Origin: Octopus sinensis
Taxonomy: Eukaryota
Direction of reading: 5' to 3'
Length of the DNA: 64,000 nt
Assembly: GCF_006345805.1 (NCBI RefSeq)
Contig: NC_042997.1
Coordinates: 127,162,001 to 127,226,000 of the forward strand
Both the position numbers and the translations under genes were made by a program. Below are positions 22,775 through 28,959 of the stretch, piece by piece; within the stretch, counting starts at the first letter, position 1; every line of letters begins with the position of its first letter. The notes beneath the pieces were generated by a model. The model saw nothing but the letters and a program-made list of their open reading frames with translations. It was not told where the DNA came from and made no database searches.

Positions 22775-23012
22775 TATCTATCTATCTATTTATCTATCTA
22801 TCTATCTATCTATCTATCTATCTATCTATCTATCTATCTATCTATCTATCTATCTACCTATCTGTCTATCTATCTATCTATCTATCTATCTATCTATCTA
22901 TCTATCTATCTATCTATCTATCTATCTATCTATCTATTTATCTATCTATCTATCTATCTATCTATCTATCTATCTATCTATCTATCTATCTATCTATCTA
23001 TCTATCTATCTA
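22775..23012. repeat. (TATC)n tract at the 5' flank of the LINE
   Basis: Near-pure tetranucleotide run. Confidence 0.95.
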
Positions 23013-23209
23013 CGGACGTGCTGTCACTTCGGCTCCGAAGGTAATCGTTAATTTTGACTATTTATAGCCCATATTTTGTGTACATTTTTGTAAATAAGTT
23101 GTGTAAGGCACCCAACTTTCGTTTGAGTGCTTTTCCAAGGGAAGAATTCGCCCCTAGGGGCAGTTTCAACCCCATTTCATTTCTGTAATTTTCTTCTCGA
23201 CATTAGAAA

Positions 23210-25098
23210 ATGTCGAGAAATTTTATTGTAGAACGCTGGTCGCGTTCCTTTATGGACCAGCATTTTCCTAGTCTGGAAACGCTAGGAGAAGAAAAAAAGA
23301 ACTCATGCATGCAAAGTGCAAACATGAATATCGTTGGAATGAACGCTGCAACCACGTGCGGTAACAGCCCTGTCACCACCGCCATCACCATTAACAACAA
23401 CAACAACGAGATTACTACTGCTACCACCACCACCACCTCCACCACCACCACCACCACTACCACCACAACCAACATAAATGATAAAAATGAAACTCACGCA
23501 AATACTATTAAGAAAAACAACAACAACAACAAGAACAACAATAAAAATGAACTATCTAATAGTGAAGATGTTAATACAAAAAAATCAACAACACCAGTAA
23601 ATTTCGCTGACACTCTGCGTCAGAAGAAAGAGATTGTAACATTTACAAATGAAGAGCTCATAGAAACGAGAGCTCTCTTTACAACCCGTGGGCAAGATTT
23701 AGTGCTACATACACCTCAACACATAAAGCAAGAAATAGAAAATAAGACAATTATATATAAAATTATAAGACAAAACAAAAAACTAAATGAACAGATTACA
23801 AAAACAGATGTAGAAAAATGCTTAAAAAACATAATAAAGGAAAACAATATATAAACTGGGGTCCCCAGTTTAACACAGTAGTGGTCCGCTTCCCTAACCA
23901 GGAAGTGGCAAAAGCTCACTCTACTGAGTCTCTGGGAAATGATGAAATCATCATGGTCCCATACTATAAAAACCAGAGAGTGAGTCGAATCACTATTAAA
24001 AATGTAATTCCCGAGATTCCTAACAAATGGATAACAGGGGCAATCTGTTACCATTTAAAAAATATCAACATTTTGGAAACCGCCGTGTACCTTGGCGACA
24101 TTTGGGGTGGGAAAACAATAGTGGTGACCATACAGATTGAGGGGGCCTCTATCGAGAGCCTACCGGATAAGATCCACTTGGAAAATGGGCAATGCCTATA
24201 TGTTGTAGCAGAAGGCAAAAAGCCTAGATGCTACAACTGTGGCAGCCCCGAACATTTAATTGCCAAGTGCGCTCTGGTACAGAAAAACAAGAAAGAACAA
24301 ATCAGAAAACAAATAAAAAAACCCTTGTTGCCAACACCAACACACTCAATTATGGAACAATGCCAAGAAAAACAACAAACCAGCAAACAAACCCCAACAA
24401 CATCACCAAGAAAAGAAACAGTACCAACATAATCACCGTTGACGTCACAACCAATTCAACATGTTGAATCAACAAAAAATAGACCAACACCCACACCGAG
24501 GACGACAATTAAAAAGACAGAAAACAGTGACGAGAAGACAAATTCTACCCCTAACACCACAACAACACAAACACCGCACAAAACATCAACAATTTCTACA
24601 AGCATACATATGAACCCAAATGCTTTGCCTCTACCCCATACTGATACGTCGGACGACGAAAGTTCGACGGAATGGCAAATAGCCACAGGGGGTAAAAGGA
24701 AAAGATCCAAAAAATCCACCAAACAAGGAAGTAAAGCAGGGAGATATCTAACTCCGGACAACATCCTCCTAGACAATCAAAAAAGCAATGAACCCGTAAA
24801 ACCACACACACAACTAACTGCAATAGACACAGACAATAAAGAATTAATGGACTACATCACATCCAACACGGACATATGTGAAGATGACTTTAAGACAAAC
24901 AATCATCCGCACACCACACCACCGAAACACATCAGAATTTTACACATAACACAAGCACAACACCACATACTGAAAACAATATTTCCGAATGCGGTAGGCG
25001 GGTTTCAACGATACCTGTCGAAAAAACTATACACACACCTCATCAAAAACAATACAAAAGAAGAAGAAAAAAATGAAACTTTTAAAATGAGTAAGTGA
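23210..25098 (+). pseudogene. LINE ORF1 (gag-like), one frameshift and one nonsense codon
   Basis: Pieces 23210-23854, 23818-24432 and 24439-25098 (last two in the same frame across a TAA); CYNCGSPEHLIAKC zinc knuckle. Confidence 0.8.
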
Positions 25099-25153
25099 CC
25101 TCCTCTTGCCTCTTGTCTCTTCTAATGTAGTGTGTAAAACACAATTTTCGTAA

Positions 25154-28100: not shown

Positions 28101-28591
28101 GCTATCGAGACGCACTACCTGTTCGAGAGAAGAGCTACAGACACGGTTCGAAAACCATCACCGGACCGACCTGCCCGAGATGCGGTCAGAGCGACGAAAC
28201 CGTTCTGCACGCACTCGTGCAGTGTCCAGATATTTCAGAGCTGTGGTCCTTCGTCGAACAGCTGTTGTCACGTGTAGGTCGGGCTCGCCTATCGGCCGAG
28301 TCTATCGTGAATATTGTTCCACCACCTTCCTTTAAACGGGAAGGGAAAACGGTTTTCGTTACGCTGATGGCTATGGCGAAAGAATGTGTGTGGTGGACGC
28401 GTTTGAAAGGACTGCAAACAAACACCTTCCTCTCTGGCCAGTCTCTCGTCAACTTTTTCAAGTACCACTTGAAAAGGAGGATGAGAATAGAGAGGAAGGC
28501 TTTGTCGAACGAATGTTTTAATAAAAAGTGGGTAAAAGTGGCAAAAATGGTCAGTATGAAAGACGACACTATTTTAAGCATAAATCTGTAA
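25154..28591 (+). pseudogene. LINE ORF2: APE endonuclease, reverse transcriptase and C-terminal zinc finger
   Basis: NARGL, ISET, YAPS, GDWN, YLDR, TDH (APE); SPGLDG, FRPITLLNADLKILAK, KAFDRVDH, RQGCPLS, YADD (RT); CPRC..ETVLHALVQC; two frameshifts and one stop. Confidence 0.92.
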
Positions 28592-28882
28592 CGAAAAGAG
28601 ACAACGAGAAGTAAGGCGACTTACTCATGTGTTCTTTTTCGAATTGTCTGAGGTGACCTTGGTCTTTTTTGTAGGTTTTTCTTTCCAAGGCTACACTTAA
28701 ACTGTGAACCTTATATATATATATATTGCTTTTTTATACACCACACAACCCACAGATCCCTATTGATCAAACGTTTTTTTTTTTTCGTGCCCCACCCATC
28801 CCACCTCGAAAAGAAAAAATTCTACATTGTATTTCGTCCATTTTTATTCTGTGTTTAGCCCTGTGTGGCTACAATAGAAAGT

Positions 28883-28959
28883 TATCTATCTATCTATCTA
28901 TCTATCTATCTATCTATCTATCTATCTATCTATCTATCTATCTATCTATCTATCTATCT
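28883..28959. repeat. (TATC)n tract at the 3' flank of the LINE
   Basis: Pure run directly abutting the LINE 3' end. Confidence 0.95.

Follow-up and report, generated by a model that had tools for sequence, protein, structure and literature searches.

Insertion by target-primed reverse transcription is established for APE LINEs, and U2, U1 and 5S genes are known kinds of target for the Tx1 clade; the elements Waldo, Mino and Dong belong to the R1 and R4 clades. The closest described systems are the Tx1-clade LINEs Kibi and Koshi of teleost fish, which target (TC)n and (TTC)n respectively, and the crocodilian Tx1-1_Crp group, which targets (TTCC)n and (TTTC)n (PMC4494074, PMC3812793, in the sections available to us). 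An element has been regarded as target-specific where one repeat type makes up >20% of its flanks (PMC4494074). Other non-LTR elements which target microsatellites are Waldo with (ACAY)n, Mino with (AC)n and Dong with (TAA)n (PMC3812793), and the NeSL-related Togen with (TG)n (PMC4640811). The Tx1L endonuclease is reported to nick almost exclusively at its target in vitro (PMC1950540), while for SART1Bm and R1Bm pairing of the RNA with the nicked strand has been proposed to fix where reverse transcription begins (PMC7265360). The mechanism by which APE LINEs choose a microsatellite is described as 'not well understood' (PMC3812793).

The LINE reported here occupies positions 23013-28882 (+ strand) of the window, by which we mean the whole 64-kb stretch of Octopus sinensis DNA that was analyzed. 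Like Kibi, Koshi and Tx1-1_Crp it is a Tx1-type APE-RT LINE placed in a microsatellite with the repeat on both sides, but its target, (TATC)n, is not a pure pyrimidine/purine repeat. It works like Kibi and Koshi and yet is neither, being set apart by its target rather than by sequence comparison; no Kibi- or Koshi-named sequence was present among the 240 matches listed. Waldo has a four-base target unit as the octopus LINE does, but comes from another clade and uses another repeat, and the (TAA)n of Dong, also from another clade, is the repeat used by a third octopus family described below. SART1Bm and R1Bm are likewise repeat- or site-specific APE elements, but of the R1 clade and with a telomeric or rDNA target, and SART1Bm is poly(A)-tailed. 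Members of the L1 clade proper copy a poly(A) and use a TTTT/AA target, unlike the octopus LINE. Microsatellite targeting was therefore already known for Tx1, and (GATA)n is added to the targets found in print. The accessible parts of the open literature, PMC8967140 and PMC4824008 among them, yielded no description of (GATA)n, (TATC)n or (TAGA)n as a target; Repbase and Dfam were outside the scope of this search. Thirteen recently active L1-Tx1 families have been described from Octopus vulgaris in a paper where, in the text available, the word 'target' is absent (PMC13282606).

The features of the window copy are collected in Table 1. In the first-pass annotation it had been called a full-length two-ORF APE-RT LINE; it is 5'-complete and two ORFs were recognized by Pfam, but it is not intact, as frameshifts and stops have broken both ORF1 and ORF2. 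Its layout is that of the Tx1 clade, and the same as in Tx1L (Xenopus, target Tx1D) and Keno (U2 snRNA), with two ORFs, a CCHC knuckle in ORF1 and an ORF2 comprising an N-terminal APE domain, RT and a C-terminal zinc motif; the target differs. Pfam matches were PF03372, PF00078 and PF13966 in ORF2 and PF00098 in ORF1, the last with 21.2 bits in the window copy and 18.6 bits, below cut-off, in the unbroken protein P0002. The endonuclease has retained the catalytic motifs N, E, Y, GDWN, D and DH when compared with human L1 EN. Protein work was carried out on natural copies of the TATC family, ORF2 P0001 (1147 aa, L081) and ORF1 P0002 (623 aa, L084), which are unbroken but come from separate copies.

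Table 1. Features of the LINE insertion and of a neighboring repeat in the window.
Feature	Position	Strand	Basis or remark
SINE-like repeat, partial tandem pair, outside the insertion	21543..21956	+	last ~50 nt resemble LINE tail
(TATC)59.5 array, 5' part of target	22775..23012	+	array match
5' UTR	23013..23209	+	same start in 62 distinct full-length copies
ORF1, gag-like, CCHC knuckle (zf-CCHC)	23210..25098	+	Pfam
ORF1 damage	frameshift near 23800-23842; stop at 24430-24432	+	
ORF2: Exo_endo_phos (APE), RVT_1, zf-RVT	25154..28591	+	Pfam
Endonuclease domain, open reading in window copy	25154..25873	+	catalytic motifs align with human L1 EN
ORF2 damage	frameshifts near 26630 and 27161-27188; stop at 27893-27895	+	
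3' UTR	28592..28882	+	ends in small predicted stem-loop and AATAAA-like word
(TATC)19 array, 3' part of target	28883..28959	+	phase as in other copies

Both arrays abut the LINE directly, the 5' one with 96% matches and the 3' one with 19.2 units and 100% matches, and no poly(A) is present at the 3' end, where (TATC)n starts at once; the annotation had been correct on this point. The AATAAA-like word of this copy is AATAGA (28873-28878), and the 3' tail is common to sister LINEs and to a SINE-like repeat. No target duplication was discernible, both arrays being pure TATC, and the flanks beyond the two arrays are unlike each other, which shows that no duplication lies outside the repeat. The last 10-25 nt of the 5' array may come from a leader on the LINE RNA, by analogy with locus L274 discussed below. 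A second copy of the LINE was not found inside the 64-kb window, and many were found elsewhere in the genome searched (G000, 2.72 Gb).

The last 30 bases of the window LINE had 184 exact matches in this genome, and the first 30 of these in genome order all continued with TATCT. When the last 293 bases were used as query, TATC began at most 3 nt from the 3' end in 30/30 best loci (window copy counted) and none of the 30 had poly(A); with the first 318 bases as query a TATC-type repeat was found upstream in 30/30 best loci. After removal of duplicates, a TATC 8-mer was present at the 5' junction of 59 out of 62 full-length copies, and the other three were TATC-like on reading (one with its array expanded by TA, one with a TGTC variant and one with an offset in the alignment). 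Truncated copies of this subfamily, taken from primary matches and checked by hand, had TATC upstream in 7/11 cases, and the four without it showed an inversion, a foreign 5' part, a repeat-rich break and reversed (GATA)n. Own-subfamily copies were mostly 92-98% alike, and the lineage amplified recently. Head-to-tail stacks were frequent, with nothing but TATC between the stacked copies.

Some copies were rearranged. At L095:1700-1950 (+) the first ~290 bases of an own-subfamily copy have been swapped for other sequence which reads like another 5' UTR and ORF start, and no TATC lies upstream. At L098, L252 and L121 the 5' part is inverted or copies are joined head to head, in one case as a chimera between subfamilies; twin priming or rearrangement at a later time would be expected to give such structures.

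A sister TATC family has 78% DNA identity to the window subfamily over 4.1 kb. Its 3' end was matched exactly at 4,555 places genome-wide, 4,009 of which continued with WTATCT, while the reversed control sequence gave no genome matches. The junctions were scored by script in a position-ordered sample from contig C1, for which 70 of the first 74 matches were used and four that lay clustered were omitted, and a TATC 8-mer was counted at the 3' junction in 59/70 copies and at the 5' junction in 8/8 full-length and 45/62 truncated copies. Two of the latter (L297, L307) were read as full-length, leaving 60 truncated copies; at their 5' junctions 45 had strict TATC, 7 a short or degenerate form, 1 stood behind the end of another copy and 7 had none, so that strict and short or degenerate TATC together make up 52/60. 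Since the truncation points were spread over the whole LINE, the upstream repeat cannot be derived from the LINE's own 5' end. At two loci, L235 and L271, only the 3' side had a long tract of TATC, an arrangement compatible with a copied tail.

As background, a TATC 8-mer occurred in 1,776 of 398,880 (0.45%) 28-nt windows from 20 arbitrary 10-kb stretches, and (TA)n, (CA)n, (TAA)n and (TATG)n arrays were 3-15 times commoner than (TATC)n in these stretches and the rest of the window. Two LINE copies were met by chance in the arbitrary stretches, both truncated and both behind TATC. One repeat type made up well over 20% of the flanks in each class of junction (59/62 full-length copies, 45/60 truncated copies, 4,009/4,555 3' ends). 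In run X2, which carries another organism code, TATC likewise follows the LINE 3' end in 95 contigs. The annotation had been made from a single copy and had allowed for chance insertion; this reservation can be dropped given 184 own-subfamily and 4,555 sister 3'-end matches in the genome and 59/62 junctions against a background of 0.45%. Tabulated genome-wide with truncated copies included, the flanks were not random, nor was TATC confined to the 3' side, the arrangement which had been taken beforehand to indicate an element-encoded tail, as 5'-truncated copies also stand behind TATC (45/60 strict).

Duplication of the target was examined at 110 loci, of which 47 were informative. A repeat variant was duplicated on both sides in 12 of the 47, whereas 300 permutations gave a mean of 4.6 and never more than 10; such a duplication was absent in the other 35, and the excess is modest. 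The candidate target duplications were about 8-17 bp in length. An example of a duplicated variant is L302, where the copy lies inside a TATCTATTTGTC satellite. The 2.3 kb of TATCTATTTGTC-type units directly 5' of this truncated copy (L302:470-2780) contain spurious 800-aa ORFs.

An empty-allele test was performed by comparing contigs of four public runs with L274, a full-length off-target copy. Single contigs in X2 and X5 connected base 599 to base 6702 and run X3 covered both filled junctions, so the insertion is missing in two runs which have other organism codes. Bases 600 and 6702 begin the same 11-mer and the empty allele has only one, indicating an 11-bp target site duplication. This off-target site was the only one where an empty allele was observed, with none seen within a TATC array, and when empty paralogs of the window site and of L066 were sought, only old repeats of 71-84% identity were returned. 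The L274 duplication encloses a copy that starts with ~25 bases of TATC-like leader. As this copy brought its own leader, the transposed unit includes some upstream repeat, and the LINE RNA is likely to carry TATC repeat at both ends. For the leader variant TGTCTAT the 5' tree shows clustering (4 changes, with 0/500 shuffles as low), but for CCATCTA and TTTATTGA it does not, and it is thus weak support for a carried leader.

Phylogenetic placement was based on an RT tree (134 rows, from a quick IQ-TREE run, rooted at the midpoint), which was built without Kibi, Koshi, Keno, Dewa, Tx1L or named L1. The family grouped with its sisters, P0003 and an Argonauta protein (99), and was joined next (100) by an unnamed group at ~43% identity. 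This octopod clade adjoined vertebrate TX1/YTX2-named proteins (89), and the enclosing 86-row clade (SH-aLRT 98) also held elements flanked by U2, U1 and 5S genes as identified with Rfam, genes of the kinds known to serve as Tx1 targets. The rows outside the 86-row clade are unnamed and presumably L1-like. On this sequence evidence the LINE family is supported as belonging among Tx1-type elements, apart from L1 proper, and the Tx1 placement given to it initially held up in a tree without Kibi, Koshi, Keno or Dewa. The nearest named protein was from Argonauta hians (P0029, 67%), while ORF2 is ~30% identical to vertebrate Tx1-type proteins and forms its own deep branch. The hairpin of the endonuclease equals that of human L1 in length and has 2 residues fewer than the Tx1L loop (PDB 2v0r).

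In the unnamed group ~43% identical to ORF2 (P0004-P0085), some clusters are represented by hundreds of members in ENA assemblies. All elements recovered by a metagenome scan were distant (best-segment identity 24-44%), and none of them ended in TATC. The tree was anchored with Tx1-type elements, some of them Keno-like, from metagenome contigs on which they lie next to U2, 5S and U1 genes (L150, L153, L156, L161-L163, L169, L185). One further locus, L200 (RCNA010002638.1), is an L1-like element outside the Tx1 group with an (ATTG)n 3' end, seen as one copy only.

A third family (loci L354-L433), with 232 exact end matches, was found by searching G000 with part of P0003. Its ORF2 is 69.5% identical to P0001 (endonuclease 65%, RT 81%), and in L414 (G000:C5:65688935-65696934) both ORFs are open, at 670 and 1145 aa from stop to stop. 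In a quick ORF2 tree the two TATC families formed one clade (99) and this family another within the octopod group. It is associated with (TTA)n, which followed the 3' end in 29/30 position-ordered loci and lay upstream of 12/12 full-length copies but clearly upstream of just 7/17 truncated copies, so its aim is looser. The hairpin of the TTA family equals that of the TATC families apart from conservative changes (WTW[TS]NRxGSSRSYLDR), which weakens a purely endonuclease-based reading, and two other endonuclease loops, after YAP and after GDWN, differ consistently between the TTA and TATC families.

The SINE-like repeat was very abundant, with 81,872 exact tail matches in the genome, and has ~45-50 tail bases in common with the LINEs. 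Local scores against three sister tails were 33-43 vs shuffle maxima of 28-31, whereas the window LINE tail scored 30 against a shuffle maximum of 35 and so was not above every shuffle. The repeat was frequently in tandem with itself and showed no TATC preference, its ends being followed mostly by TA-words, with TATC near 1/25. Neither ARAGORN nor Rfam detected a tRNA head on it, and a Tx1 partner of octopus SINEs was not found in the available part of PMC4758252. Further SINE-like ends occur in the window near 33026 and 33464 (+), and one on the - strand.

The window LINE is a broken copy of a Tx1-type lineage with (TATC)n/(GATA)n at both junctions, which is most likely due to site-specific insertion by target-primed reverse transcription. 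The family targeting GATA microsatellites that was first proposed is borne out by copies with TATC at both junctions and by the duplicated variants. As to what selects the site, we favor targeting led by the endonuclease with RNA pairing setting the phase, and would give this reading a probability of roughly 0.7 on the sequences compared. What was observed is the flank pattern, a fixed 3' phase, duplications of ~8-17 bp, head-to-tail stacks, one empty allele and one carried leader. In the mechanism we propose, the RNA would include part of the upstream repeat as its leader and would extend beyond the AATAAA word into UAUC repeats, so that no poly(A) would be copied. The APE domain would nick the GATA strand at a site of ~7-8 nt, reading TATCTAT(C) on the top strand, and the freed ...GATA-3' end would pair with UAU(C) of the RNA and prime reverse transcription. 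A second nick 8-17 nt off would then give the target duplication, and 5' joining would proceed through the repeat leader in full-length copies or through 0-4 nt of microhomology in truncated ones. Every insertion would leave TATC at both ends, into which later copies could stack. In the background, TATCTAT stood in TATC context in 235/322 occurrences vs 351/21,214 for TAT, and a site of 7-8 bases would account for the observed share of insertions within arrays. Microhomology of at least 1 nt was found at 22/31 clean truncated junctions vs 43% simulated, a count inflated by taking the best of 8 references; 11/42 truncated junctions with extra bases were left out.

That the endonuclease alone reads (GATA)n is less certain, because the hairpin is shared with the TTA family and TATC is probably present at both RNA ends. 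It is conceivable, if rather unlikely, that octopod Tx1 elements pick the microsatellite through the repeats at their RNA ends and not through the endonuclease, with one near-constant nicking domain serving (TATC)n, (TTA)n and the TA sites of the SINE-like repeat. The endonuclease would then nick at a short common ATA core and priming would occur only where the repeat tail of the RNA pairs, UAUC here and UUA in the sister family, so that changed RNA ends would mean a changed target. The hairpin and 65% of the endonuclease are indeed shared by the (TATC)n and (TTA)n families, the off-target sites L274, L298 and L258 start with TAT, and the SINE-like repeat, having a similar tail without the UAUC extension, is mostly followed by TA-words; the pairing proposed for SART1Bm and R1Bm (PMC7265360) is a precedent. 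However, L249, L284, L288, L303 and L312 lie at the 3' edge of an array with 5-8 nt of TATC downstream, and the long array, being upstream only, could not be read by the RNA tail. The other endonuclease loops do differ between the families, and grafting the hairpin alone is reported not to have transferred Tx1L specificity (PMC1950540), so equal hairpins need not mean equal specificity; the SINE-like repeat may also be mobilized by another LINE. If choice by RNA ends were true, targets could be reprogrammed by a few RNA bases and the lineage would be among the main forces shaping the SINE and microsatellite content of octopus genomes.

Loose insertion with no real target, in which (TATC)n is written at both ends from the element's own RNA and grows by slippage, would agree with the real RNA leader at L274, with the few copies having TATC on the 3' side alone (L235, L271) and with the TTA family, where the repeat follows nearly all ends but clearly precedes a minority of truncated copies. 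We consider it very improbable, as the leader is lost in truncated copies and yet 45/60 of these stand behind TATC, site-specific variants are duplicated across insertions, and L274 and L298, off-target copies with clear duplications, have no TATC tail past TAT. Almost no weight is given to random insertion followed by selective survival in arrays, or to an assembly artefact there: the genome is rich in microsatellites and long-read assemblies do err in arrays, but insertions seldom use the commoner (TA)n, (CA)n, (TAA)n and (TATG)n, the orientation is fixed as is the phase, and the pattern is seen in young copies (92-98% alike) as well as in the 95 contigs of run X2. Overall, the absence of any real targeting has a slim chance. 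Chance insertion and tail-only models were rejected on the truncated 5' junctions, the duplicated variants, the 4,009/4,555 ends and the empty allele.

One genome offers two young and close families (ORF2 70%) with different repeat targets, unbroken ORFs and thousands of dated junctions. Since close families use different repeats and a SINE-like repeat has the same tail, the determinant of the target is directly testable, and the natural pair of TATC and TTA families is suited to swaps of the endonuclease and of the RNA ends. A partner LINE is also suggested for the SINE-like repeat, and octopus GATA microsatellite markers can hold kilobase insertions.

Other repeats were noted in the window, most of them judged by eye. 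Broken mariner-type transposase frames lie at 15654-16879 (-), and Penelope-type RT or GIY-YIG-like fragments at 35568-39195 (-), 9053-9673 (-) and 7512-8057 (+). C-terminal fragments with CCHC and PD..D motifs, resembling LINEs of R4/Dong type with a restriction-like endonuclease, were seen at 54433-55098, 60217-60813 and 61590-62081 (+). Just 3' of the insertion, at 29565-30050 (+), is an interspersed repeat without an ARAGORN or Rfam call whose head is tRNA-like in appearance.
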